A stretch of 30,410 nt of DNA, taken from the IMG/VR virus record IMGVR_UViG_3300006467_000276; one strand, 5' to 3'. This document shows positions 12,460 through 26,577 of the stretch, piece by piece. The DNA is from an uncultured virus (IMG/VR IMGVR_UViG_3300006467_000276). Taxonomy: Duplodnaviria > Heunggongvirae > Uroviricota > Caudoviricetes. How positions within the stretch are numbered: position 1 is the stretch's first letter; every line of letters starts with the position of its first letter. A program made the translations under genes and the position numbers. The notes beneath the pieces are model-generated. The model saw only the letters and a list, made by a program, of their open reading frames with translations, was not told where the DNA came from and ran no database searches.

Positions 12460-13320
12460 TCAGATATCGAATCCTCGAACTCGATCCCCTTTCTGGCTAG
12501 ACCTGAAACTCCGAGTGGTAATCCCCAATTCCCCAAGAACACGATTCACTTTCTGGGGAGTTACTTCATCGTCCTTAAAGTCTGCTGGGCAGTTTAATCC
12601 AGGAAACGGAAGAGTCACAAGTGGTAAATTCCGATTGAATACCGATAAATTGGAGGATATCGCCTTGTATGCCTTCGTCGTCTCTTTGAGTTCGTTCTTC
12701 AGCCACTTAATGGCTGTTTTCTCTCCGATGCCTTCAACACCTTCGACATTGTCTGATTTGCACCCAGCCCACGCCTTAACGTGAGCCCACTGCTGAGGCG
12801 AAATCCTCCACTCTCTTTTGAAAGATTCTGCAGTCACCGCCTTCTTCGATCTTGGGCTGTACCAGCTGACATTCTCTCTCAAGCACTGCCAAAGATCATT
12901 ATCACCCGTCACAATTACTGCAGAATCCTTAAGAGGAATCTCTTCAGCAACAGCAGCAAGAATGTCATCAGCCTCAAAACCCCGCCGCCGAAAAATATTT
13001 CGGTATCCCATTTCAGGTAAGACATTCCGTCCTAGATCTCGAACTTCTCCGTAGAAGCTTTTCAGTTCCTCCTCCTCTTCTTCTGTCAAATCTTTATTTC
13101 GATGCGCCTTGTAATCCGGAACCAGCTCTCTTCGGTGTCCACCTCCTCCTGCATCAAAAGCGAATACCGCCCGATCGCAGCCCCAGAGATCCGTGACCAT
13201 ATCGATCGCACGAATCACACCAAAAACGACACCGGTGGGACGGTCATTGTAGACCATTCCACCGGTGGTATGTCGTGCAACATGGCACAAATAGGTTGCA
13301 TCAAGCAGCAGCCACTTCAC
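12460..13320 (-). CDS. 5'-3' exonuclease/flap endonuclease (PolI N-terminal domain/T4 RNase H-like)
   Basis: LLLDA, FAFD, YKAHR, GFEADD, TGDNDLWQ, GCKSDNVEGVEGIGEKTA (HhH); GTG start 13320. Confidence 0.92.
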   Translation of the reverse strand: MKWLLLDATYLCHVARHTTGGMVYNDRPTGVVFGVIRAIDMVTDLWGCDRAVFAFDAGGGGHRRELVPDYKAHRNKDLTEEEEEELKSFYGEVRDLGRNVLPEMGYRNIFRRRGFEADDILAAVAEEIPLKDSAVIVTGDNDLWQCLRENVSWYSPRSKKAVTAESFKREWRISPQQWAHVKAWAGCKSDNVEGVEGIGEKTAIKWLKNELKETTKAYKAISSNLSVFNRNLPLVTLPFPGLNCPADFKDDEVTPQKVNRVLGELGITTRSFRSSQKGDRVRGFDI

Positions 13321-13501
13321 TGAGGTGTTCCTTTTCCTTTTCCTTTTGAATCGCCTCATGCACCTCCAATCGATGCACTGAAATCTCTTTCGGTGCATCA
13401 ATTCCTAAACGAACTTTGTCGCCGCGAATATCAACCACCGTGATGACGATGTTACCGCCAATAACGATCTTTTCATCTCGCAGTCTTGATAGAACCAACA
13501 T
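13301..13501 (-). CDS. csrA: carbon storage regulator CsrA homologue
   Basis: MLVLSR...IVIG...ITVVDIRGDKVRLGIDAPKEISVHRLEV; SD AGGAGG. Confidence 0.95.
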   Translation of the reverse strand: MLVLSRLRDEKIVIGGNIVITVVDIRGDKVRLGIDAPKEISVHRLEVHEAIQKEKEKEHLSEVAAA

Positions 13502-13629
13502 TGTGTGTCCTCCTGTCCTTTCCGTGAATTTGACACAACTATCAATACCAGCTGCTCTCAGCAACTGATCAATCCCTTATTGAGTCTAGCAAAAGAACCA
13601 AAAACCTCCAACCTAAATCTAAGAGCTCC

Positions 13630-13749
13630 GTTTCCGGCAAGGATTCGAACCTTGCAACACGATTCACAGGAGGCCTGGACCCCCTTGCACAAACAACGTG
13701 CATCGCGACGTCGTGATTCGCCTGTGTCTACCCATTCCACCACAGAAAC
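13630..13749 (-). ncRNA. non-canonical tRNA-like RNA (D-arm, T-arm and acceptor stem, enlarged central domain)
   Basis: Minus strand GTTTCTG TG GTGGAATGGGTAGACAC ... GCAAGG TTCGAAT CCTTGC CGGAAAC; about 68 nt between D- and T-arm; no CCA. Confidence 0.65.
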
Positions 13750-13770
13750 GGAACCCCCTCTCGGTTCAAT

Positions 13771-14895
13771 TTACTGGTACCTGGATTTTCTTTCGACTTT
13801 GCAGCCTTCTTCGATCTCGTCAAAAACTTCCTTGACAAGCTGACGCACATCAAATTCCAAATCATTGTCTTCGATGTACTTGATCAATTGATCCGGAGTA
13901 CGTGCCTTGCCGTCGTCCACCAAATCGACCGCCTTGATACGTCCATTCGCAGACGGCCAGCGGTGCTCATCTGCCAAATACTGCACACACGCACCGATAT
14001 CATCGAATCCATGTGAGTAGTAGAATATCAAGTCGAATTCTCTCAACCGACCCGAAGCTCGATTTTTCTTCAACTTGACCTTGACATTTGACCCAATCTG
14101 GCGAGTCTGCTTCTGGACTGTTTTGGTGATCTTCTTACCGACCTGCATCCAGATTTCCAGCGTAGCGTAGAACGTCAACGCATGCCCACCGGATCGAGTC
14201 TTCGGATTGAACATTGCATTCGATCCGATGTTGTCTCGAGTTTGGTTGATAATCACCAGAATACTGCCAGTCGCTCTCAGTTTTCTGAGTATTTGGCGAA
14301 TCCCAGACGCGTTCTTCTTGGCTTTGCCATCGCCATAATCGCCTTTAGCTGCCTTACCGCCTTCGATTGCTTTGACTCGCTCTTCAAACTTCTGGCCTTC
14401 GTACTCAGAAGTCAGAGCATCCATCGAGTCCAGAACGTAGATAATCGGCTTACCAGAATCCAAGAGCCGATGCACATGGTAGTAGAACTCTTCGATGGTC
14501 TCGCTGTAGACTGGATCCCCGTCCTCATCTTCCCGAGGAGGTTTCAATCGATCTACAAGATTTTGACCGAAGTACCTACCGGTATCCATCAAAGCCCCGT
14601 ACTCGACATCATCGTACACGAGATCGTAATCATCGAATACCGGATTGACTGCTGCTTCTGCCAACCAACTGCGTGCCAAAAACGTCTTCCCGGCGCCTGA
14701 ATCTCCAACCAAAAATACATAAGTCCCCGGTGGAATTGCTCCTTCGAGATGTCCTGTGCAGTTCAGATTGAGTAGAGTCGATGCGCCGTTGAGCAGCGTT
14801 TTTCTGTTGATCGGGATCAAATCAGATTCCACAGATCTTTTCCTGGTCAAGAGTTCAAGTGTCTGCGCAGTTGCTGCATCAATTTCATCATCCAT
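13771..14895 (-). CDS. recA: RecA/UvsX-like recombinase
   Basis: Walker A GDSGAGKT, catalytic DVE, Walker B VLDSMDAL, IINQTRDNIG, GGHALTFYA, KKNR; start placed at ATG 14895. Confidence 0.9.
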   Translation of the reverse strand: MDDEIDAATAQTLELLTRKRSVESDLIPINRKTLLNGASTLLNLNCTGHLEGAIPPGTYVFLVGDSGAGKTFLARSWLAEAAVNPVFDDYDLVYDDVEYGALMDTGRYFGQNLVDRLKPPREDEDGDPVYSETIEEFYYHVHRLLDSGKPIIYVLDSMDALTSEYEGQKFEERVKAIEGGKAAKGDYGDGKAKKNASGIRQILRKLRATGSILVIINQTRDNIGSNAMFNPKTRSGGHALTFYATLEIWMQVGKKITKTVQKQTRQIGSNVKVKLKKNRASGRLREFDLIFYYSHGFDDIGACVQYLADEHRWPSANGRIKAVDLVDDGKARTPDQLIKYIEDNDLEFDVRQLVKEVFDEIEEGCKVERKSRYQ

Positions 14896-14908
14896 TTCTA
14901 CCAATCCC

Positions 14909-14946
14909 AAAGAGGCCGGCAGGGCCAGCAACGAACCCCGCCGGCC
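14909..14946 (-). terminator. weak terminator-like hairpin after SSB
   Basis: GGCCGGCGGGG...CCCTGCCGGCC followed by TCTTT. Confidence 0.4.
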
Positions 14947-15010
14947 GGACGGCTGAGCACCGGAGCGCCTGTCCATAGCGACATCCATCTACCAGTGCAT
15001 CAGCCTTGCC

Positions 15011-18094: not shown

Positions 18095-19483
18095 TTAGAC
18101 CACCTGCGTTACGTCCACCGCTTTCTTCTCAAACCAATTCGTCGGAGAAGCCTCGGCTTCGATTTCCAAAGGCACGACAATCCAATCCCAATGCTGACGA
18201 ACCTTCTGTGTCATCACTTGATTGACTTCGTAAATTACGTCGTCAAACTCATCCTGATGCACGTCTAGCACCATTGAATCATGAATCTGACCGATTACTT
18301 TAGAACGCATCTTATTCTGCTTCAACCACTCATTCACTTGAATGAGAGACCAGAGAAGAAGATGAAATGATGGTCCTTGAATTGGATAGTTGTAGATGTT
18401 GTTCTTGGTGTAGACCCCTTTGCACACAAACCCGGTCATCATCTTGAACCAACCGCGTTTGAGGTACTCGTTCCACCAAACCTCTTTCTTGTCACGCCAG
18501 ACCGGAAACCGATCTCCAAATCTCTGCTCGACTTTTTTGACATGTCGATAGAACGAATCCATCTCTGGATGCTTCTTGTTTCCAAGAGCATTGATACCAA
18601 CACTACTCAAGTGCTCGTGCAGACCGACACCATCAACAGTCTTAAGGTCCATTCGATCAATGACAGCCCACAAAGCCTCTGCGCAGCTCCCCCAATAACT
18701 GCCATAGAGAATCGGAAAAACGAATTTGTTCTTCCCCATCCCTCGAGCAGCCTTCGTGACCTGATCAGCAGAAATAGAATAGCACTCTGCTGTCATGTCT
18801 CGATGGATGTCCAGACTAGGGTCGCTCGCATACGCCACCATCGATGGATCATTCCACTGGCAAGCTGCCCCACGAAACTCAAGAGCCGAATAATCGATCT
18901 CGACCAACAAGTGCTCCGGCGTTCTTGGGATAAATGCTCGTCGTATCAACTTCGCTTGCCGGGGATCCCGAATAGGCATGTTTTGGAAATTCGGGGTAGA
19001 GCTTGAGCTCCGAAACGTACGAGCAAAGCACAAATCAAAATTCGGATGCAGAAAGCCATCAACGGTTTCTCGACGAATTCCTTGCAGATAGGTGCCACGA
19101 GCTTTCTTCAGCTTCTCGAGCGACAGGAATTTCTTGACGAAAGGTAAGTCGATCTCTTCAAGCGCCTCGATATCTGCTGCAGCCCTGCCTGTGTCTGTTG
19201 TTCGGGTCGACGGTATTTCCATCACCCCAAAGAGAATCTTACCAAGCTGTTCCTTACTGCCTAATTCAGCTCTTCCTGGAAATGTCTTTCGCCAAAGAGC
19301 CCAAATCTCATCGTCTTTGAGCTCTACTTCCATTCGTCTGATTTTCTGACCTGCCTGCTTGATCACTCGGTCAAGATAATCAACATCAATCCGCATGCCG
19401 TTCGCTTCGACATCTGTCAAAGCCTGAGCCCCTTGCATCAGTAATTGGTAAGCTTCTGGTGTTGATGCGACGATTTGATTCAC
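18095..19483 (-). CDS. polA: family A DNA polymerase, polymerase domain only
   Basis: RSSSSTPNFQNMP, motif A DYSALEFR, motif B RGMGKNKFVFPILYG, NYPIQG, motif C QIHDS; GTG 19483 by GTGA coupling. Confidence 0.93.
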   Translation of the reverse strand: MNQIVASTPEAYQLLMQGAQALTDVEANGMRIDVDYLDRVIKQAGQKIRRMEVELKDDEIWALWRKTFPGRAELGSKEQLGKILFGVMEIPSTRTTDTGRAAADIEALEEIDLPFVKKFLSLEKLKKARGTYLQGIRRETVDGFLHPNFDLCFARTFRSSSSTPNFQNMPIRDPRQAKLIRRAFIPRTPEHLLVEIDYSALEFRGAACQWNDPSMVAYASDPSLDIHRDMTAECYSISADQVTKAARGMGKNKFVFPILYGSYWGSCAEALWAVIDRMDLKTVDGVGLHEHLSSVGINALGNKKHPEMDSFYRHVKKVEQRFGDRFPVWRDKKEVWWNEYLKRGWFKMMTGFVCKGVYTKNNIYNYPIQGPSFHLLLWSLIQVNEWLKQNKMRSKVIGQIHDSMVLDVHQDEFDDVIYEVNQVMTQKVRQHWDWIVVPLEIEAEASPTNWFEKKAVDVTQVV

Positions 19484-19590
19484 AGAGTTGTCACCCAAGC
19501 AACAGCAAACAGAACAACAAAGAGCCCAAAACAGATCACAGTAGTGATCAGCACGAACTTATCCAAATTCGGACCACCACCACTACTCAC
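19480..19590 (-). CDS. 36-aa single-TM peptide
   Basis: Hand-translated MSSGGGPNLDKFVLITTVICFGLFVVLFAVAWVTTL; GTGA overlaps at both ends. Confidence 0.6.
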   Translation of the reverse strand: MSSGGGPNLDKFVLITTVICFGLFVVLFAVAWVTTL

Positions 19591-20207: not shown

Positions 20208-20587
20208 TGTCCTGTCTCCGGATTATCGACCCAATTTCTCTTCTTGACAATTTTTTGCCAAGTCTTATTCAAAGCATCTTGCAGAGAAATTCCTTCACGG
20301 GACGCATAATCGCACAAGTAGATCAGAATGTCACCAACAGCATCGTCCCGTTCCTCTTGATATTTCTGCTCATCGTCGTAACCACGAATTCCCTGATGAT
20401 GCTTCAGAGTGACATGCGACAGCTCGCCCACTTCTTCGACTAGCCCGAGCAACGGGCTCAAAGACCCTAGCACCTGGTCTGTCGCCTTGCTGACCTGATC
20501 CCCGAAATTCACCCGAGACCACTTGGCTACCTCACTCTGAATCAGTGCCAATGATTTCTCAGACGGAGATTCATACTGCGTTTCCAT
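20195..20587 (-). CDS. MazG-like nucleotide pyrophosphohydrolase
   Basis: LVEEVGEL...DAVGDILIYL (EExxE...D metal-binding motif). Confidence 0.85.
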   Translation of the reverse strand: METQYESPSEKSLALIQSEVAKWSRVNFGDQVSKATDQVLGSLSPLLGLVEEVGELSHVTLKHHQGIRGYDDEQKYQEERDDAVGDILIYLCDYASREGISLQDALNKTWQKIVKKRNWVDNPETGQCLG

Positions 20588-21806
20588 CGACCATTTCTTT
20601 CTTTTGGTGCTTTGCTACGAGATACTCAACCAAAGCATCTAGCCCATTGTACGTCAGCGATGTCCTTCTATCCGTATGTACCAGCTGATTCTGATCGTAC
20701 GAACTAGACCCGCTACCAGTTTTCAGGTCCCGGCCCATTGATCCGCTCCACGGCTCAAATCCTAACCGTACAAAAGCCTGAAACTCAACTGATTTTGTAT
20801 CAGGGCGATTATCCAAGTGATGAGCGGACAGCATTGTATCCCATACCCAGTTATTCACTGAATGCCCAAACTCCGCTCGAGTCCACCGATCTTCGAATTT
20901 GTTGTTGGCCCCTATCTTAGGGCACGGCGACTGAAGCCACTCGCTCATCGCTTCCTTCACTGCTCCCGCCCAAGGAAAAGCAATGGTGCGTCTGCCTGCG
21001 TAAGAAACCGCACAGGATACAATCTGGCTGGTATCAGCATCAGGCTTAAGGCATGTCGTTTCGTAATCAAATGACCCCGGACGCGGTGTTTTGCACCATT
21101 CTCTGATAATGGCAGCAGCTTCGTCAGGGTCATGCACCAACTCCACTTGCCCACGATAGTCAGGCACTTCAGTCCACGGCCTACTACCGCTGAGATCAAA
21201 AGCCTGTTTCAAGCACCGCTCGAACCACAACCGAGTTACCGGACCATTCGGTTTGCGATCATTCGTCAGAATGAATGATGGATGGAAATCCGGCACCACC
21301 CAAGAATTTATTCGCTGGAGTGGTATTTGATACCCTACCCAACGATTCACGCCGCCTGGATCAGTCTTCCAGAAAGGACTCAAAACAGAACGAATCGCTG
21401 AGCCGCCTAAAGGTATGATGACCTTCGGTTTGTACTCCTTGAGGAAATTCGTCAAGTTTGGGCGGCATGCATCGACTTCATCTGGCTTTGGAGCTCTGCC
21501 GCCTGCCGGATGACAAATGATAGCATTCGTCGCCCAGCAGTCTCGATCAAAATCAATACCAATGGACTCTAAGTACCGCCGAAGATACTGACCAGCTTTC
21601 CCGACGAACGAATTGCCTTGGATATCCTCGTCCCTGTCAGGAGCCTCACCGACAATCAAAACACCAAGCCGCCCCTTCCCTGAGACCTCAAACTTCGGAC
21701 TACTGCACGATTCCCAGAGCCCGCACTGTCCGCATCTAGGTACAGTACCCTGAACCGCCGGCTTGCTGCGTACAATTGATTCCGGAAAAAAGCCTCCAAC
21801 TGCCAC
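20571..21806 (-). CDS. family-4 uracil-DNA glycosylase fused to a DnaQ-like 3'-5' exonuclease (N-terminal part of split PolA)
   Basis: CGQC, VGEAPD, FVGKAG, ICHP, DAC, FHPSF (UDG); FDYET, NNKFED, DTML, YNGLDA (Exo I-III). Confidence 0.9.
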   Translation of the reverse strand: MAVGGFFPESIVRSKPAVQGTVPRCGQCGLWESCSSPKFEVSGKGRLGVLIVGEAPDRDEDIQGNSFVGKAGQYLRRYLESIGIDFDRDCWATNAIICHPAGGRAPKPDEVDACRPNLTNFLKEYKPKVIIPLGGSAIRSVLSPFWKTDPGGVNRWVGYQIPLQRINSWVVPDFHPSFILTNDRKPNGPVTRLWFERCLKQAFDLSGSRPWTEVPDYRGQVELVHDPDEAAAIIREWCKTPRPGSFDYETTCLKPDADTSQIVSCAVSYAGRRTIAFPWAGAVKEAMSEWLQSPCPKIGANNKFEDRWTRAEFGHSVNNWVWDTMLSAHHLDNRPDTKSVEFQAFVRLGFEPWSGSMGRDLKTGSGSSSYDQNQLVHTDRRTSLTYNGLDALVEYLVAKHQKKEMVDGNAV

Positions 21807-22868: not shown

Positions 22869-23302
22869 AATTCGAATCCTCGAATCCCTGACTTGGTGTT
22901 CAAAAGTGTATCAATTCTGCTGACAACCTCATCAACAGTCCGGCACAGCATGTTGGCCAAATATTCAGGGGAGTTCTCCCGAACTCTCTCTGAATCAGTA
23001 CTCAGCCCCCAGCGAATGACTCGATCCTCAGTCCATGTGAATCGCTCTCCAGTACGAACAGTTCTTCCCTCTTTCGCAGGGTCTAGTTCATAGTCAGTTC
23101 TTCGGACTGCTCGACGCCGCAGCAAATGGTCCCCCTGGATCAAGCTACTATAGGCATCCCGATCGTATCGCTTTCCGAAGGCAACCAGTGCTCTCTCGTA
23201 CTCCTGCTTCGAATCTGCAGGCAGCACCATCTCTAAGAAGAGGTCGATGTCAGCATTGACCCACTCGGTTCGATTTTTTGCTTCGGTGCAATCTCTGTCC
23301 AT
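22865..23302 (-). CDS. putative Myb/HTH-like DNA-binding protein
   Basis: Two W/F-x3-D/E helix starts (EWVNADIDL, FTWTEDRVI) and LANMLCRTVDEV; C-terminus IRGFEL. Confidence 0.5.
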   Translation of the reverse strand: MDRDCTEAKNRTEWVNADIDLFLEMVLPADSKQEYERALVAFGKRYDRDAYSSLIQGDHLLRRRAVRRTDYELDPAKEGRTVRTGERFTWTEDRVIRWGLSTDSERVRENSPEYLANMLCRTVDEVVSRIDTLLNTKSGIRGFEL

Positions 23303-24306
23303 TTCCGAAATGCCTTGTGCCCCTTAGTTGTCGTCGTCATCCCAATCTTATGATAGGACATCAACCGTCTTCTCAGACGAAATTCAACGGAATCGTCGAT
23401 AGATCCTTCGCCGCCAGCGAAATAGATGTGATCGACGGGCAAATCCTGATTCGCTCGAATGATGAATCCAGCATTCGCTCGAAACCGCCATTGGTGAGAT
23501 GTAACTACTCCAGGAGTGACCGTCCGCACCACCTTATTCTTTTTGCCGTCGAACCAAAGCTCATCAGGCGATTTCTTATACCCCGAAGAAACGTCTACTA
23601 TCTCAATCTCACCGACAGGCAGCTTCTTTTCCTGAAGGTACTCGTCTACCCATGCACGAAGCGTAGGCGACAGAGTCGTGTAATGCGTATTCCGTTCATC
23701 CCGAGTTGGAGACTTCGGGGACGTATTCAGCAAGAATGGTGGTTCGTCATAAACAAACTCACCATTCCTCTTCTTCGGAATGTAAATCACTCCATAGGCT
23801 GCCTGCTTCAGCCAGCTCGCCGAATCAACTGAATACCACCACTGGTACTTCATCAACTGAAACGACGTGACGGCAAACCCATGAGTCTTGACTGTCGGCC
23901 TACCAGCTCCATCAAACAGCAATTTCTGGAGCCCAGTCAAATACCTCTTCTGAGAATCTTTGGACCCAAAGCCGCAAGTCTGACCAAGCCCGACATAAGG
24001 ACTGCCGAACTCGATGTACCTTTCCAGCCACTTCAAGTCCTCTCCTCGGTGGAAGACCGGAATGACTTTTTCGATGGGCAGCTCTTTGATCATCAGCTGA
24101 TAATTGTTCCAGCTCGTCTCACAGGCAGCCGCCACCAATTCAGGCAATCGAGAATTCGGCAGTCCAGGTTTACCAGGAATGGCATCCAGGCACACATAGT
24201 ACGACACACCAGGATGCTGATGACAGAAATCGATGTACGTTCTGATATCGATTTCAGCGCCAGAGTTCCAAACAGAAAACGCACCACTGTCAAGCATCAA
24301 GGGCAC
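23233..24306 (-). CDS. dpdA: TGT-fold DNA transglycosylase DpdA (7-deazaguanine insertion into DNA)
   Basis: LDSGAFS, LDAIPG, IPVFH.GE, YVGLG, THGFAVT, SVDSASW; clustered with folE/queE/queD. Confidence 0.85.
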   Translation of the reverse strand: MPLMLDSGAFSVWNSGAEIDIRTYIDFCHQHPGVSYYVCLDAIPGKPGLPNSRLPELVAAACETSWNNYQLMIKELPIEKVIPVFHRGEDLKWLERYIEFGSPYVGLGQTCGFGSKDSQKRYLTGLQKLLFDGAGRPTVKTHGFAVTSFQLMKYQWWYSVDSASWLKQAAYGVIYIPKKRNGEFVYDEPPFLLNTSPKSPTRDERNTHYTTLSPTLRAWVDEYLQEKKLPVGEIEIVDVSSGYKKSPDELWFDGKKNKVVRTVTPGVVTSHQWRFRANAGFIIRANQDLPVDHIYFAGGEGSIDDSVEFRLRRRLMSYHKIGMTTTTKGHKAFRKWTEIAPKQKIEPSGSMLTSTSS

Positions 24307-24319
24307 TGATACTCACTCC

Positions 24320-24799
24320 TTAATCAAAAATTCGAGCCGCCGCGACGTCTTCTTGAGTCCGGCAACCAGCCAACTTCTCATATCGCCGCTGTTTTTCGGC
24401 ACGAAGCTGCAGCACCTTCCTGCCAGTTGCGTCTTTGGCACGCTCGGCCTCTCTTACCTCATCGACAACCGCCGCAATCGCAGAGCACAGATCCATTCTT
24501 GACGGACACGATCGCGAGTGATGACGTTTCTCGTACGGCAGTTTCTTGTTTAGCTTCTCCCTGGCCACTTCCAGCTTCTCGCCGATACTTGCGTACTCCG
24601 CTTCCAGTCGTTCAACCTCTGCCAGCTCCTTCGCAATCTTGAGACGGCCGACAGCAACCTTTCGACATCGTTCCTCAAGTCGCCGCTCATGCGACTCATC
24701 AGTTACTGCCAACTCCCTCATTCCCGCCAGATATCGGTCATCGATCAACTTCTTGATGTCTGCGCGTTCACTTGTCGTCATCTGAGCCATCGCGCTCAC
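24320..24799 (-). CDS. hypothetical coiled-coil protein
   Basis: GTGA coupling to the folE stop; helical charged composition. Confidence 0.7.
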   Translation of the reverse strand: MSAMAQMTTSERADIKKLIDDRYLAGMRELAVTDESHERRLEERCRKVAVGRLKIAKELAEVERLEAEYASIGEKLEVAREKLNKKLPYEKRHHSRSCPSRMDLCSAIAAVVDEVREAERAKDATGRKVLQLRAEKQRRYEKLAGCRTQEDVAAARIFD

Positions 24800-25431
24800 T
24801 CCTTAATCAAATCAAAGAACTCAGAACGGACTGCCGGTTCAAGGAATGATCCGTACAGACTCGAAGTAACCATGACCGAGTCTCTTTTCCCTACTCCTCG
24901 GCAGCTCATGCACGAATGATGGGCCTCAATCACACACGCAGCTCCCTTTGGCTGCAAATGCTTGTTCAGTGCATCAGACACCTGCTGGCACAGTCGCTCT
25001 TGTACCTGCAACCGCCGTGAATAGTAATCCAAAATCCGAGCCAACTTCGAGATACCGATGATCTTTCCGTCTGGTAGATACGCAATATGAGCTCGACCAG
25101 AAAACGGCAGCATGTGGTGCTCGCACAATGAGATGAACTCAATGCTTCTCAAGAGCACCATTTCATTGCAAGCACCATCCTCGAACACAGTCATAATTCT
25201 TTCCATGGCTGCATCTTCGGACTCTTGGTACCCTGAGTTCATCTCAAGCAAACTAGCCGCCACCCGCCTCGGAGTATCGAGAAGACCCTCCCGAGTGGGA
25301 TCTTCGCCGATAAACCGAAGCAAAGTGGTAACCGCATCTTTAGCTTGGTCGATCGTGATTTCTGCTGCTCGACGAAGAGCATCTGATGTGACATTTGCCA
25401 GAATGCGATAGTCCTCGTTCAAATCCATCAA
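24796..25431 (-). CDS. folE: GTP cyclohydrolase I
   Basis: REGLLDTPRRVA, SLCEHHMLPF, GISKLAR, RRLQVQERL, HSCMSCRG. Confidence 0.97.
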   Translation of the reverse strand: MMDLNEDYRILANVTSDALRRAAEITIDQAKDAVTTLLRFIGEDPTREGLLDTPRRVAASLLEMNSGYQESEDAAMERIMTVFEDGACNEMVLLRSIEFISLCEHHMLPFSGRAHIAYLPDGKIIGISKLARILDYYSRRLQVQERLCQQVSDALNKHLQPKGAACVIEAHHSCMSCRGVGKRDSVMVTSSLYGSFLEPAVRSEFFDLIKE

Positions 25432-26129
25432 TCCAGTCCTGCCAATTTGTGGGTCTGTACAGACAAGCGATAACCGAATCTACGGCAGGATTCCACCGCA
25501 GCATCCAGGTTCTTCTTGTTCTTGATCTCATCTTTTTCGTCCAGCGGCTGCACAAAAATTTTGTCAGCCACTTGATTGAGCATCGGTGGGCGGTACGGAC
25601 GACCATATTGAGGTCCGACCGACACTAAAGGCAGTCCATCACTCGAATCAATCAATCCAGCTTTCACCACATACTTGAATGCATCCGCTCTCATAGCGGT
25701 TTGATGTGGGATTGACCGTGTCTTCGGCGAACATACCACTGACATCTTTGCCAGGATGAACGGCACACCTAGTGTACCGTTTGTCTCTATCTGCACAATC
25801 CCGCCCGGACCCATCTCGTCAATGAGACGAAGAACCAAAGATTGCAGATTTTGACGGAAAGGCTCACCTCCAGTGATGACTATCAGCTTTCTGCTCGGCA
25901 AAGCCGACAACTCTTCGACTACATCCAAAGGTGTCATTCTTTTTCGAACAGAAGTGTAGTCAGTGTCGCACCAATGGCACTGTAGATTACAGCCTGCCAA
26001 CCGGATAAAGACAGCCGGCGTCCCAAAAAAGGGGCCTTCGCCTTGCACTGTATCCCAGATCGAATGGACTTCCACCGAACCGTCCGGATGAGCATCCTTA
26101 GGCTCTATCTTCTGTGTGTTCTTCTCCAT
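25428..26129 (-). CDS. queE: 7-carboxy-7-deazaguanine synthase (radical SAM)
   Basis: TVQGEG..GTPAVFIRLAGCNLQCHWCDT, ITGGEP, IETNG, VCSPK, RLSVQTHK; ATG 26129. Confidence 0.95.
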   Translation of the reverse strand: MEKNTQKIEPKDAHPDGSVEVHSIWDTVQGEGPFFGTPAVFIRLAGCNLQCHWCDTDYTSVRKRMTPLDVVEELSALPSRKLIVITGGEPFRQNLQSLVLRLIDEMGPGGIVQIETNGTLGVPFILAKMSVVCSPKTRSIPHQTAMRADAFKYVVKAGLIDSSDGLPLVSVGPQYGRPYRPPMLNQVADKIFVQPLDEKDEIKNKKNLDAAVESCRRFGYRLSVQTHKLAGLD

Positions 26130-26577
26130 AATCTGCCCAGCAATTCGGTGTTTCATAGAGCCGCACATGAGTGACCGTGACCAGCTCATCTTCAAGCAAA
26201 TCAACAGCCACTTCAAACAAAACTTCCGCCATGGTCTCTGCCGTTGGATTGAGTCCATCAGGCATCAAATACGGCGTCTTTGGTCCGACCAACTCTCTGG
26301 CTTCCTCGTCAGTCATGCTGTCCAGTACGTCGCACAAGGGATCGTTTCGATTCAGAAGAAAATTGTGATCCCAATATTCATCAATCCAACCACCAACAAT
26401 TTTCTTTACGACACTGAAATCAACCACCCTGCTCAGACTATCCAGAGCATCAGCTGTGACAGATATCTCAGCAACGTACCGATGCCCGTGCAGATTTGCA
26501 CATTTCGACTCATGCCCGAGAACCCGATGCCCAGCATCAAATTCAATTTTTCGAGTAATGACTGTAGATCGACTCAC
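26098..26577 (-). CDS. queD: 6-carboxytetrahydropterin synthase
   Basis: FDAGHR, CANLHGHRY, VDF, DH, NPTAE, ETP. Confidence 0.95.
   Translation of the reverse strand: MSRSTVITRKIEFDAGHRVLGHESKCANLHGHRYVAEISVTADALDSLSRVVDFSVVKKIVGGWIDEYWDHNFLLNRNDPLCDVLDSMTDEEARELVGPKTPYLMPDGLNPTAETMAEVLFEVAVDLLEDELVTVTHVRLYETPNCWADYGEEHTEDRA

Follow-up and report, generated by a model that had tools for sequence, protein, structure and literature searches.

A tRNA-shaped RNA element with an oversized, non-canonical centre between a UvsX-like recombinase gene and csrA of an uncultured phage

tRNA-like stable RNAs stand in the genome records of phages T5 and T4 without an assigned function. In the T5 record (AY543070), the annotation of the genes rna1 and rna2 reads 'tRNA-like stable RNA with unknown functions', and T4 species 1 and 2 (rnaC and rnaD) are small stable phage RNAs located beside tRNA genes, their function being likewise unassigned in the record. 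All statements made here on these T4 and T5 RNAs are taken from the GenBank annotations. tRNA-shaped folds are also found within longer transcripts, where they recruit RNase P or RNase Z, as in the MALAT1 mascRNA and the tRNA-miRNA units of gammaherpesvirus 68, and the E. coli tufB operon provides an example of a tRNA-mRNA co-transcript. The bacterial Y RNA YrlA carries a tRNA-like domain on a closed stem and works with Ro/Rsr.

The DNA analysed here, hereafter the window, is a stretch of 30,410 nucleotides from an uncultured virus (IMG/VR IMGVR_UViG_3300006467_000276), and constitutes the replication module of a phage of about 92 kb. Its minus strand carries a tRNA-shaped RNA element of 121 bases (13629-13749) between the gene of a UvsX-like recombinase and csrA. 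The features of the locus are given below with the evidence for each, R1 being a covariance model of phage elements presented further on.

13771 to 14988, minus strand: UvsX/RecA-like recombinase gene (Pfam RecA, 1.9e-14; PHROG 97, UvsX-like recombinase, 5e-36)
13750 to 13758, minus strand: 5' leader strand, pairing with the 3' trailer (9 contiguous pairs counted)
13743 to 13749, minus strand: 5' strand of the acceptor stem, GTTTCTG (sequence; aligned with the acceptor of R1)
13724 to 13742, minus strand: U8 (13742), G9 and leucine-type D arm GTGGAATGGGTAGACAC (13740-13724) (sequence; R1 alignment)
13656 to 13723, minus strand: 68-nt centre replacing the anticodon arm and variable region (constrained folding, pair probabilities)
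13637 to 13655, minus strand: T arm, GCAAGG/CCTTGC with loop TTCGAAT (sequence; R1 alignment)
13630 to 13636, minus strand: 3' strand of the acceptor stem, CGGAAAC (sequence; R1 alignment)
13621 to 13629, minus strand: position 73 (G) and 3' trailer strand, pairing with the leader (sequence; pair count)
13502 to 13620, minus strand: spacer and csrA leader (promoter scan, GGA count)
13301 to 13501, minus strand: csrA, 66 aa (Pfam CsrA, 3.5e-23)

Anatomy and genomic context of the element

The acceptor stem is formed by seven pairs, including one G-U. The D arm has a 3-bp stem and presents G18 and G19, and the same arm occurs in the tRNA-Leu of T4 and T5, both of which are also matched by R1; A14 and the A15/U48 pair are intact as well. 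The T stem counts 6 bp (13655-13650 with 13642-13637) below its loop (13649-13643), one A-U pair more than the consensus of the class, and the R1 alignment treats this pair as an insertion on both strands. The acceptor/T arrangement is consequently 7/6, a helix of 13 bp as compared with 12 bp in elongator tRNAs. No CCA is encoded, since the bases following the acceptor stem are GGAG. The 7-bp acceptor, U8, the D arm, the T loop, the 6-bp T stem and the lack of CCA had been read on the minus strand in the preliminary description and are confirmed here, as is its preference for this strand, with a folding energy of -41.4 kcal/mol for the minus-strand RNA versus -29.0 for the plus strand. The extension of the acceptor helix that it reported also exists, its length being 9 contiguous base pairs (13758-13750 with 13629-13621, several of them G-U) and not about 8. 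A strict descriptor of the tRNA scaffold, which demanded full acceptor pairing (7/7), both U8 and A14, a D stem whose loop contains GG, and a T arm made of 5 bp with G53-C61 under a loop TTCRANY, has one match in the window, which is the element, and none in 100 dinucleotide-preserving shuffles searched on both strands.

A canonical anticodon arm, with a 5-bp stem immediately following position 26 and a 7-nt loop that has U33 and a purine at 37, is absent from the element. In the centre, pairing is robust only in two hairpins, at 13702-13686 (probabilities of 0.72-0.92) and 13684-13669 (0.89-0.99); the helix that closes them (13722-13703 with 13668-13657) is ambiguous. Both folds previously put forward for the centre exist, but the minimum-free-energy register is a third one, pairing GCGA-A-UCAC with GUGA-A-UCGU, and the pair probability is 0.01 for the GCGA/UCGC arm, the one whose loop has 9 nt. 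The centre alone is not unusually stable relative to mononucleotide shuffles (z = -1.25), as would also be expected of a drifting remnant. No orthologue near enough for a covariation test of the centre was found, the near-identical records being the same phage, of which three copies differ by just 2-3 mismatches per 3-4 kb. Complements of the centre in the window include three 11-mers (0.87 expected) and eight 10-mers (3.5 expected), within a few-fold of chance. The sole 12-mer of this search lies on the plus strand (12538-12549); on the minus strand, the transcribed one, it thus repeats the element directly, and it was rejected as an antisense target.

The tRNA detectors that were run overlook the element. 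With default settings, ARAGORN found no tRNA gene and no tmRNA in the window; with introns allowed, the element stayed uncalled at the normal threshold and was forced into a 'His, 48-nt intron' solution at a relaxed one. Rfam reported no family for the window at gathering score and, at E <= 10 in 301 nt, called no tRNA, tRNA-Sec, tmRNA or other family for the element. Among the features of a canonical tRNA, the element retains the 7-bp acceptor, U8, the D arm with G18 and G19 and the T loop TTCRANY, and it lacks a qualifying score with the Rfam tRNA model (RF00005, curated threshold of 29 bits), the anticodon arm, and the 5-bp T stem with its 12-bp acceptor/T helix. This association of a tRNA upper half with an oversized non-canonical centre is the one that characterizes the phage tRNA-like stable RNAs. 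Candidate identities were rejected on specific grounds: tRNA-Sec, which has an 8/5 or 9/4 arrangement and a 6-bp D stem, by the 7/6 arrangement and 3-bp D stem of the element, by the fact that no 7-nt loop presents UCA, and by the absence of any match to RF01852; tmRNA by ARAGORN and Rfam; an intron-containing tRNA by the ARAGORN results, the poor quality of the 'His' solution and the lack of any Rfam intron or ribozyme family. The element thus scores neither as a standard nor, at the normal threshold, as an intron-containing tRNA, and the earlier inference of a tRNA-shaped, non-decoding RNA fits with the silence of both programs. The Y-RNA-like identity that had been suggested finds no support, as YrlA and other bacterial Y RNAs gave no Rfam match and no Ro/TROVE protein is found among the 43 ORFs of the window (PHROGs). 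No other tRNA gene was detected in the 30-kb window by ARAGORN, Rfam or R1, so the element is solitary there.

The neighbouring genes are all on the minus strand, in an operon that is otherwise tightly packed. The gap between the recombinase gene and csrA measures 269 nt, about half of it occupied by the element, and the stop codon of the recombinase gene lies 21 nt ahead of G1. Of the two neighbours named initially, csrA is upheld by its Pfam match, and the supposed recA is better assigned to the UvsX-like recombinases of PHROG 97. No sigma-70-like promoter was predicted in 13200-14200, the stretch from the element to csrA included. In the csrA leader, a cluster of four GGA motifs lies no more than 22 nt from the ATG, and the 127 nt from 13502 to 13628 contain six (2.8 expected, P = 0.03).

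Relatives of the element and of its csrA locus

Searching viral contigs with the pattern GGTAGACAC-N55-85-GGTTCGAATCC retrieved 56 loci, corresponding to 37 distinct centres. Three of these are ordinary tRNA-Leu genes with an adjacent T-arm-like stretch (L079, L089, L103), four belong to a single family with a canonical anticodon arm and a 39-nt variable arm, and the other 30 lack a canonical anticodon arm at the canonical place. For comparison, viral contigs hold at least 118 Leu-type genes of normal spacing. ARAGORN in default mode called 4 of the 57 elements (the 56 loci plus the window), all of them ordinary tRNA-Leu genes. The covariance model R1 considers only the pairs of the acceptor, D and T stems, and its 24 training sequences are phage elements other than that of the window: 28 of 35 distinct loci passed a filter of at least 6/7 acceptor pairs, and 23 of them were used together with locus L009. 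R1 matches the element with 52.2 bits (E = 4.7e-13), its sole match in the 30,410 bases, a result that is partly circular, as two motifs of the window itself (20 bases) had served to collect the training sequences, which were then filtered for acceptor pairing. In the 24-sequence alignment, 98.9% of the cells pair, against 37-46% in slid controls; compensatory changes affect 7/7 acceptor pairs and 3/5 T-stem pairs, and the observed covariation score was reached by none of 500 shuffles. On this comparative evidence, the scaffold of the class is under selection.

The class is also heterogeneous, a tRNA-Leu upper half being kept around an oversized and highly variable centre. A73 is found in 19 of the 24 members and the window element has G73. 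Among 27 elements, leader/trailer pairing comparable to that of the window was seen only in L092 (7 bp) and L088 (4 bp). With the tRNA model of Rfam, eleven of the oversized relatives attain the threshold, namely L056 (52.4 bits), L069 (49.5), L063 (48.2), L090 (43.3), L015 (42.7), L071 (39.9), L072 (39.7), L067 (39.0), L106 (38.0), L081 (32.2) and L009 (30.0), while the window element has no match at E <= 10. Some members combine a canonical anticodon arm with a very long variable arm and an encoded CCA; the arm of L069, L078, L094 and L095 has the loop CUGUUUA and compensatory changes in its stem, and L112 has the loop CTTAAAA. Internal duplications or tRNA-tRNA chimeras occur in L077, L085, L119 and L116. 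In one subfamily, L067, L074, L106 and L120 carry unrelated centres on the same scaffold AGTCAGG...CCTGACT-A. Pfam annotation of 65 flanking ORFs from 33 distinct loci revealed no recurrent partner gene across the class. The family of L069, L078 and L094 adjoins a class II aaRS-like ORF. A literature search found no paper describing this class or its link to phage csrA.

The closest cellular relatives of the phage csrA are mostly from Planctomycetota, with 64-84% identity. Inheritance from a host tRNA-csrA locus was rejected, 80 bacterial csrA loci, again mostly from Planctomycetota, giving neither ARAGORN tRNAs nor R1 matches within 1 kb. By comparison, in 10 of 58 viral csrA loci the Rfam tRNA model, applied with its threshold, places a tRNA or tRNA-like element ahead of csrA and co-oriented with it, a weak contrast since phage genomes are generally richer in tRNA genes than random bacterial loci. 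One of the viral loci, L009, is the nearest csrA relative with an element in this position; it encodes a csrA 79% identical to that of the window and carries a 147-nt Leu-type element 171 nt upstream of it. This element is non-canonical, with a 5-nt anticodon loop and a variable region of about 75 nt, and its acceptor (GGTCTCG/CAGGACC) differs from that of the window by changes on both sides of pairs 2 and 4 and on one side of pair 5. The other neighbouring genes differ, so that the tRNA-like element and csrA are all that the two loci share. Two other csrA relatives, L031 and L041, have an ordinary tRNA-Met upstream in the equivalent place, which suggests that the position upstream of csrA may be one where tRNA genes land and decay. 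An ordinary tRNA in relatives had been proposed as evidence against a dedicated RNA of this kind; the non-canonical L009 element sides with such an RNA, and the tRNA-Met genes point the other way.

Starting from the recombinase gene, the search of viral contigs yielded seven loci, the best with 49% identity. Neither a tRNA-like element nor csrA follows the recombinase gene in L002-L004 (48-49% identity), of which the sequence was read, and the pair formed by the element and csrA therefore appears to be a recent insertion. Twelve loci were obtained from metagenome contigs, two of them the same phage and the rest the same distant set. A 32-nt exact pattern from the element and a blastn comparison with GenBank phages gave no match.

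Possible origin and role of the element

We propose that a leucine-type tRNA gave rise to the element, that it encodes a tRNA-like RNA which does not decode, of the kind of T5 RNA1 and RNA2, and that this RNA is excised from the uvsX-csrA transcript, a reading that we consider to have an about even chance of being correct. The element would be transcribed within the long minus-strand operon running from the UvsX-like gene into csrA. In the RNA, the acceptor stem, the T arm and the elbow of the D and T loops would build the upper half of the tRNA L-shape, which could be recognised by host tRNA-processing enzymes. RNase P would cut on the 5' side, and the closed leader/trailer stem would be the target of RNase III or of a 3' endonuclease. 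Such cleavage would set free a stable RNA species of about 120 nt with defined ends and, in the same step, part the recombinase mRNA from the csrA mRNA. The data are compatible with the processing-signal role suggested initially. As it lacks a 7-nt anticodon loop on a 5-bp stem, the element cannot read codons. The anatomy, the failure of the tRNA detectors that were run, the existence of relatives and the gene context are observed; that the element is transcribed, processed, stable and uncharged we infer. Our guess is that the upper half serves as a chassis, and that what counts is the variable lower half or the processing event alone. The window element is atypical of its class by G73, the 6-bp T stem and the closed leader/trailer helix, which sits uneasily with this proposal, and the closed helix may hinder RNase P. 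Its solitary position is a further point to be set against it, as T5 RNA1 and RNA2 sit in a tRNA cluster.

The element could instead be a decaying phage tRNA-Leu pseudogene, or a chimera from recombination between tRNA genes, without function and persisting only through its recent arrival with csrA. Such an origin is rather unlikely in our opinion, even if it finds an echo in several of the results above: the window element is the weakest tRNA match of its set, the stability of its centre is no better than that of shuffles, some members of the class are evident duplications or chimeras, the element and csrA were recently inserted, being both missing from L002-L004, and an ordinary tRNA-Met occupies the equivalent place in L031 and L041. 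However, decay should strike the scaffold too, and the acceptor, D arm, T arm, U8, A14, G18, G19 and A15/U48 are all intact, while the centre is more than a few mutations away from any anticodon arm with a variable arm. The additional pair of the T stem, with one base inserted on each strand, is not a random indel, the acceptor changes in L009 are compensatory instead of disruptive, and the element takes up about half of the intergenic gap in a tightly packed operon.

Another candidate role is that of a decoy or sponge for tRNA-binding factors. The released RNA would titrate a host factor that binds this body, such as a tRNA-targeting defence nuclease, a 3'-end-modifying toxin, RNase P or LeuRS, and so protect phage translation. 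The conservation of the tRNA upper half around a centre that varies among phages agrees with it, as do the unrelated centres on the AGTCAGG...CCTGACT-A scaffold, a pattern expected of an arms race or of exchangeable cargo, and the retention by most members of A73, the leucine discriminator. Anticodon nucleases, however, require the anticodon loop that is absent from the element, which is moreover a poor mimic of a chargeable tRNA-Leu because of its G73 and closed 3' end, and genes of defence or counter-defence are not consistent neighbours of the 33 distinct loci. Altogether, a decoy function seems quite unlikely.

That the element is a true decoding tRNA, either freed of its insert after transcription as an unconventional intron or decoding despite a hyper-extended arm, is very unlikely. 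The relaxed ARAGORN solution, in which 48 nt are removed, does produce a loop CUGUGAA (anticodon GUG) on a stem GGCGA/UCGUG, and canonical anticodon arms exist in L069/L078/L094/L095 and L112. This solution nevertheless leaves a G-G mismatch and a variable region of 2-3 nt on a class II D arm, without the G-1 of a His-tRNA, and the intron anticodons given by ARAGORN are inconsistent across the 57 elements, so much so that L069 and L078, which are nearly identical, are assigned to His or Tyr. Group I introns are far larger than 48-68 nt, neither a group I intron nor another ribozyme family was found with Rfam, and no RNA ligase or splicing endonuclease is encoded among the 43 window ORFs. From what is established for tRNA-Sec, an EF-Tu-dependent use would also be disfavoured by an acceptor/T helix of 13 bp together with a 3' end that is not free.

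Finally, a partnership with the phage CsrA, as a CsrB-like sponge or a cis element bound by the protein, is highly improbable, for although upstream tRNAs or tRNA-like elements are seen in 10 of 58 viral and in none of the 80 bacterial csrA loci and such an element with csrA is the sole feature common to the window and L009, GGA motifs are not enriched in the element (2 observed, 2.7 expected), which speaks against a CsrB/RsmZ-type sponge, nor when eight tRNA-like elements that accompany csrA in viruses are pooled (29 observed, 25.5 expected), and the GGA cluster lies in the downstream csrA leader, outside the element.

Returning to the non-decoding tRNA-like RNA, its broadest version can be put forward only as a speculation that is, on the whole, unlikely. 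Phages would widely use the upper half of tRNA-Leu as a natural 'tRNA scaffold' that recruits processing enzymes, resists degradation and displays, in place of the anticodon arm, a hypervariable cargo for host takeover or counter-defence; here it would travel together with csrA as a cassette of two parts and, in addition, fix where the csrA mRNA starts, and T5 RNA1, RNA2 and the window element would belong to one large functional class. The element and its dozens of relatives suggest that RNAs of this kind are not confined to two laboratory phages. The relatives recur in environmental phages, mostly solitary and inside replication or recombination operons, and standard tRNA finders overlook part of them, leaving genes that are now annotated as intergenic gaps. 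If an RNase P-type excision is true, phages would have in it a way to punctuate operons and to produce stable small RNAs, and if the variable centres are cargo, the class would be a natural counterpart of the engineered tRNA scaffold.

Comparison with described tRNA-like RNAs

Allo-tRNAs and tRNA-Sec share with the window element a non-standard acceptor/T helix, with the arrangements 8/5, 9/4, 8/4 and 9/3 in the parts of Mukai et al. (PMC5389517) drawn on here, from which the 7/6 of the window is absent. Its 13 bp equal the length in tRNA-Sec; allo-tRNAs decode, whereas the window element, without a UCA anticodon, is predicted to be unable to do so. The mascRNA, the gammaherpesvirus 68 units and tufB exemplify the mechanism proposed above for the element. 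They are eukaryotic or viral-eukaryotic systems, or true tRNAs, unlike the element, in which the mascRNA model matches the T arm alone (12.4 bits for a threshold of 42.5). YrlA resembles it by a D/T elbow on a closed helix made of the 5' and 3' ends, but a closed stem of at least 7 bp is present in just 2 of 27 elements and is thus not conserved in the class.

With the canonical class II tRNA-Leu, the element agrees in its acceptor stem and D arm as well as in U8 and the T loop, and R1 also matches the tRNA-Leu of T4, with 39.2 bits. The window element differs from the canonical form by the lack of a 5-bp/7-nt anticodon arm, the 68-nt centre, the 6-bp T stem, G73 instead of A73 and the lack of a free 3' end, and it is missed by ARAGORN and Rfam. 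T4 rnaC has a T-arm-like CCGGGTTCGAATCCCGG as the element does, but only 15 bits with R1 (E = 0.12) and no leucine-type D arm, and rnaD is devoid of a T loop; neither is an evident homologue.

The T5 RNAs are nearer. As matched, RNA1 and RNA2 measure 131 and 117 nt and score 40.3 and 25.0 bits with R1, compared with 36.1 for the tRNA-Leu of T5 itself; RNA1 reaches 24 bits with the Rfam tRNA model, for a threshold of 29, and RNA2 has no match, the window element being likewise below. They differ from it by their location inside a large tRNA gene cluster, their 5-bp T stem and centres of unrelated sequence, and RNA1 by the absence of the leader/trailer pairing that extends over 9 bp in the window. 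Their stable accumulation is a record annotation, whereas the window element is known from sequence alone. Like the element, both T5 RNAs are co-oriented with the neighbouring genes and combine a T arm and paired ends with an oversized centre devoid of a canonical anticodon arm, and RNA1 has the leucine-type D arm as well.

Structure of the element and folding of its centre

Between a UvsX-like recombinase gene and csrA, the window carries a real, non-canonical tRNA-like gene, the parts of which were read from the sequence or, for the 68-nt centre, from a fold constrained by the scaffold (acceptor, D and T parts).

Features of the element and its flanking genes (all minus strand)
13771-14988: UvsX-like recombinase gene
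13758-13750 and 13629-13621: leader and trailer, forming 9 further contiguous pairs
13749-13629: tRNA-shaped element
Acceptor stem of the element: GTTTCTG/CGGAAAC, 7 pairs, one of them G-U
After the acceptor 5' strand: U8 and G9
D arm: class II, leucine-type, GTGGAATGGGTAGACAC
13702-13686: centre hairpin 1, 5-bp stem and 7-nt loop GUUGUUU, pair probabilities 0.72-0.92
13684-13669: centre hairpin 2, 6-bp stem, pair probabilities 0.89-0.99
T stem: GCAAGG/CCTTGC, 6 bp, with the textbook loop TTCGAAT
Position 73: G, followed by GAG instead of CCA
13301-13501: csrA

Re-reading of the minus strand bore out the tRNA-like parts named in the preliminary description (acceptor, U8, leucine-type D arm, 6-bp T stem, no CCA) as well as its choice of strand, for which the folding energy is lower (-41.4 kcal/mol; plus strand, -29.0). 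The acceptor extension, which it put at about 8 bp, is present with 9 pairs, so that the acceptor helix is closed, over 16 bp, in the primary transcript, and the 7/6 arrangement of acceptor and T stem forms a 13-bp helix. The two hairpins proposed for the centre are its only robust structure, but for the helix that closes them three or more registers compete, the energetically best being one that had not been described, and the alternative GCGA/UCGC arm with a 9-nt loop received a probability of 0.01. Taken by itself, the centre shows no exceptional stability (z = -1.25). Its GTGAATCGTGTT recurs as a 12-nt direct repeat at 12538-12549, where the exonuclease gene meets the following ORF, probably by chance.

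The usual detectors do not recognise this structure. ARAGORN with default settings reported no tRNA and no tmRNA in the whole window, and with introns allowed it left the element uncalled at the normal threshold, a forced "His, 48-nt intron" solution emerging at a relaxed one. Zero Rfam families reached the gathering score across the window; a 301-nt search at E <= 10 returned three scraps of 12-13 bits, two of them the T arm alone, and no match to tRNA, tRNA-Sec, tmRNA or Y-RNA. A strict descriptor (7/7 acceptor pairs, U8, A14, D stem with GG in the loop, 5-bp T stem with G53-C61, loop TTCRANY) has the element as its single match in the window and none in 100 dinucleotide-preserving shuffles, both strands included.

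Phage setting and relatives through recombinase and csrA

The window is phage DNA with nearly all genes on the minus strand. It further encodes a 5'-3' exonuclease, a RuvC-like resolvase, a clamp loader, a sliding clamp, an SbcCD-like nuclease, a thymidylate synthase and a DNA polymerase split over two ORFs (18095-19498 and 20571-21806), which correspond to consecutive parts of PHROG 17 (positions 477-828 and 834-1237) and enclose two small ORFs, one MazG-like. The 7-deazaguanine gene set at 23233-26258, composed of a queuine tRNA-ribosyltransferase homologue that we read as DpdA-like, a QueE or QueE-like gene and a GTP cyclohydrolase gene, suggests that the phage DNA is modified with 7-deazaguanine. 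Other copies of this phage were found in a metagenome contig of 92,396 bases and two records of about 29 kb. Its CsrA is nearest to that of Planctomycetota (64-84% identity), a similarity hinting that these may be the host. No sigma-70-like promoter was predicted at 13200-14200, and co-transcription with its neighbours is therefore the simplest assumption for the element. The csrA leader (13502-13628) contains six GGA motifs for 2.8 expected (P = 0.03), four of them at most 22 nt from the ATG and overlapping the Shine-Dalgarno sequence, as would be expected for CsrA autoregulation. Roles of the element as a CsrA sponge, or as an antisense RNA with a target within the window, were tested and are unsupported.

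Loci for comparison (L-numbers) were collected from viral, metagenome and bacterial sequences. Searches with the recombinase gene reached distant phages only (at best 48-49% identical), and the sequence 3' of this gene in L002-L004 holds neither a tRNA-like element nor csrA; the pair they form is therefore an insertion in the window lineage. In L005, tandem oversized tRNA-like elements (2627-2756 and 2765-2917) lie directly upstream of a RecA/UvsX-like gene 30% identical to that of the window; they score 31.9 and 18.1 bits with R1, a covariance model of phage tRNA-like elements.

The csrA search gave 58 viral loci (L009-L066). The most informative is L009 (csrA 79% identical), where a leucine-type element of 147 nt, with D arm and T loop nearly identical to those of the window, lies 171 nt upstream of csrA among otherwise unrelated neighbours (DNA polymerase A, Dam methylase). 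Compared with the window, its acceptor, GGTCTCG/CAGGACC, has both bases changed in pairs 2 and 4 and a single base changed in pair 5; its "anticodon" loop has 5 nt and its variable region about 75 nt. L011 (csrA 75%) carries a D-armless tRNA-like element in the same position. In both loci (L009 1330-1500, L011 1300-1500) a hairpin with compensatory changes comes after the element, and a conserved GC-rich hairpin of about 50 nt, common to the two loci, directly precedes csrA. tRNA scaffolds with large insertions occur in L015, L056, L057 and L063/L064, the insertion lying in the anticodon loop in L056 (31 nt) and L063/L064 (18 nt). Overall, a tRNA or tRNA-like gene (Rfam tRNA at or above threshold) stands upstream of csrA, on its strand, in 10 of these 58 loci, and 4 have one downstream, versus 0 of 80 bacterial csrA loci (L136-L215; ARAGORN or R1), a contrast that is suggestive only, because tRNA genes generally abound in phage DNA and the two sets were unequal in flank length and in detector. 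Descent from a host tRNA-csrA arrangement is unsupported by the bacterial count.

A heterogeneous class of oversized leucine-type elements

The pattern GGTAGACAC-N55-85-GGTTCGAATCC, made of the D and T arms of the window at a spacing larger than in normal tRNA-Leu, retrieved 56 viral loci with 37 distinct centres. The canonical arm is absent from its canonical place in 30 of these; three are ordinary tRNA-Leu genes beside a T-arm-like stretch (L079, L089, L103), and four, of one family, combine a canonical anticodon arm with a 39-nt variable arm. By default ARAGORN calls only 4 of the 57 elements (window included), all ordinary tRNA-Leu; for roughly two thirds of the loci, no ordinary tRNA lies within 1.2 kb. 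Some of the 30 are recombination debris: L077 (1190-1300) repeats about 30 nt in tandem, and L085, L119 and L116 show internal duplications or tRNA-tRNA chimeras, with D-arm-like or T-arm-like pieces of a second tRNA in the centre. The set is therefore heterogeneous.

All seven acceptor pairs form in 25 of 35 distinct loci, and six or more in 28. An alignment of 24 sequences was composed of 23 of these 28 and L009, leaving out three near-duplicates and two loci with odd D arms. Scaffold cells are paired in 98.9% of cases, against 37-46% in slid controls, and compensatory changes affect 7/7 acceptor pairs and 3/5 T-stem pairs; the filter on pairing raises the percentage but not the compensatory pattern. 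None of 500 shuffles reached the covariation score, and A73 is present in 19 of the 24 elements. Pfam searches of 65 flanking ORFs revealed no recurrent partner gene.

Several subgroups were observed. Near-identical ends (AGTCAGG...CCTGACT-A, preceded by T) are shared by L067, L074, L106, L113, L120, L081 and L100, with unrelated centres in L067, L074, L106 and L120, a pattern that would suit an exchangeable centre; within the trio L081/L100/L120, centre and scaffold are conserved to about the same degree. L092 (1190-1312), adjoining a tail tube gene, is the sole other member with a long leader/trailer extension (7 bp) and also has G73. A tRNA family (L069 1184-1290, L078 1190-1296, L094 1185-1290, and L083, L118, L122, L080, L082, L115, L095) displays a leucine-type D arm, a canonical anticodon arm whose loop is CUGUUUA and whose stem varies by compensatory changes, a variable arm of 39 nt, G73 and encoded CCA. 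Its members lie directly 3' of a class II aaRS-like ORF of 274-284 aa (Pfam tRNA-synt_2, D/K/N type), with a class 3 lipase downstream; the ORF and tRNA may form a dedicated synthetase-like/tRNA pair.

R1 was built from the 24 aligned sequences, the window not among them, and the acceptor, D and T stems supply all of its pairs. The element is its sole match in the window (52.2 bits, E = 4.7e-13), a partly circular score because 20 scaffold bases were fixed by the window-derived pattern; R1 accommodates the additional A-U pair in the T stem as an insertion on both strands.

Alternative readings, proposed working and known phage RNAs

A decaying pseudogene is a serious alternative, though an improbable one. 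Of its set, the window element matches tRNA least well, the centre is no stabler than chance, no orthologues permitting a covariation test were found, and some csrA relatives have ordinary tRNAs in this place (tRNA-Met in L031 and L041), which the preliminary description would have taken, together with a centre lacking covariation, as a sign of decay. The element of L009 is non-canonical. Against decay, the scaffold is flawless, the T-stem insertion is paired, the acceptor changes of L009 are compensatory and the operon is tightly packed. That the element decodes as a tRNA, after splicing or in some other way, is very unlikely, since no coherent excision restores a cloverleaf and neither an intron family nor a splicing enzyme was seen in the window.

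The class and the window conserve the acceptor/T coaxial helix and the D/T elbow, presumably what host enzymes acting on the tRNA "top half" recognise, and the lost parts would be those needed by the ribosome; a non-decoding, excised RNA is therefore favoured. RNase P, together with a 3' endonuclease, would cut such an RNA out of the uvsX-csrA transcript; for the window element, RNase III acting on the 16-bp closed stem is an alternative. Cleavage would uncouple the two mRNAs and leave the excised RNA, some 120 nt long, as a stable species. The released RNA may be a decoy, a cargo carrier or inactive, and its leucylation appears unlikely because of G73 and the closed end.

In tRNA-Sec, a 13-bp acceptor/T helix goes with exclusion from EF-Tu; the window element reaches this length as 7/6. 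R1 generalises to T4 and T5 tRNA-Leu (39.2 and 36.1 bits) and scores T5 RNA1 at 40.3 and RNA2 at 25.0 bits, whereas T4 rnaC (species 1 stable RNA in its annotation) reaches only 15 bits despite a T-arm-like segment. A full-text search covering few older T5/T4 papers found no literature on the class or its tie to phage csrA. In the T5 record, rna1 (144 nt) and rna2 (125 nt) bear the annotation "tRNA-like stable RNA with unknown functions", a kind that had never been explained; RNA1 falls under the Rfam tRNA threshold (24 vs 29 bits) and RNA2 is unmatched, and the window element is likewise not found. From the R1 scores and this annotation, the T5 tRNA-like stable RNA is the closest known kind, of which the element is a structural variant, distinguished by its 7/6 helix, closed acceptor stem, solitary occurrence and link to csrA.
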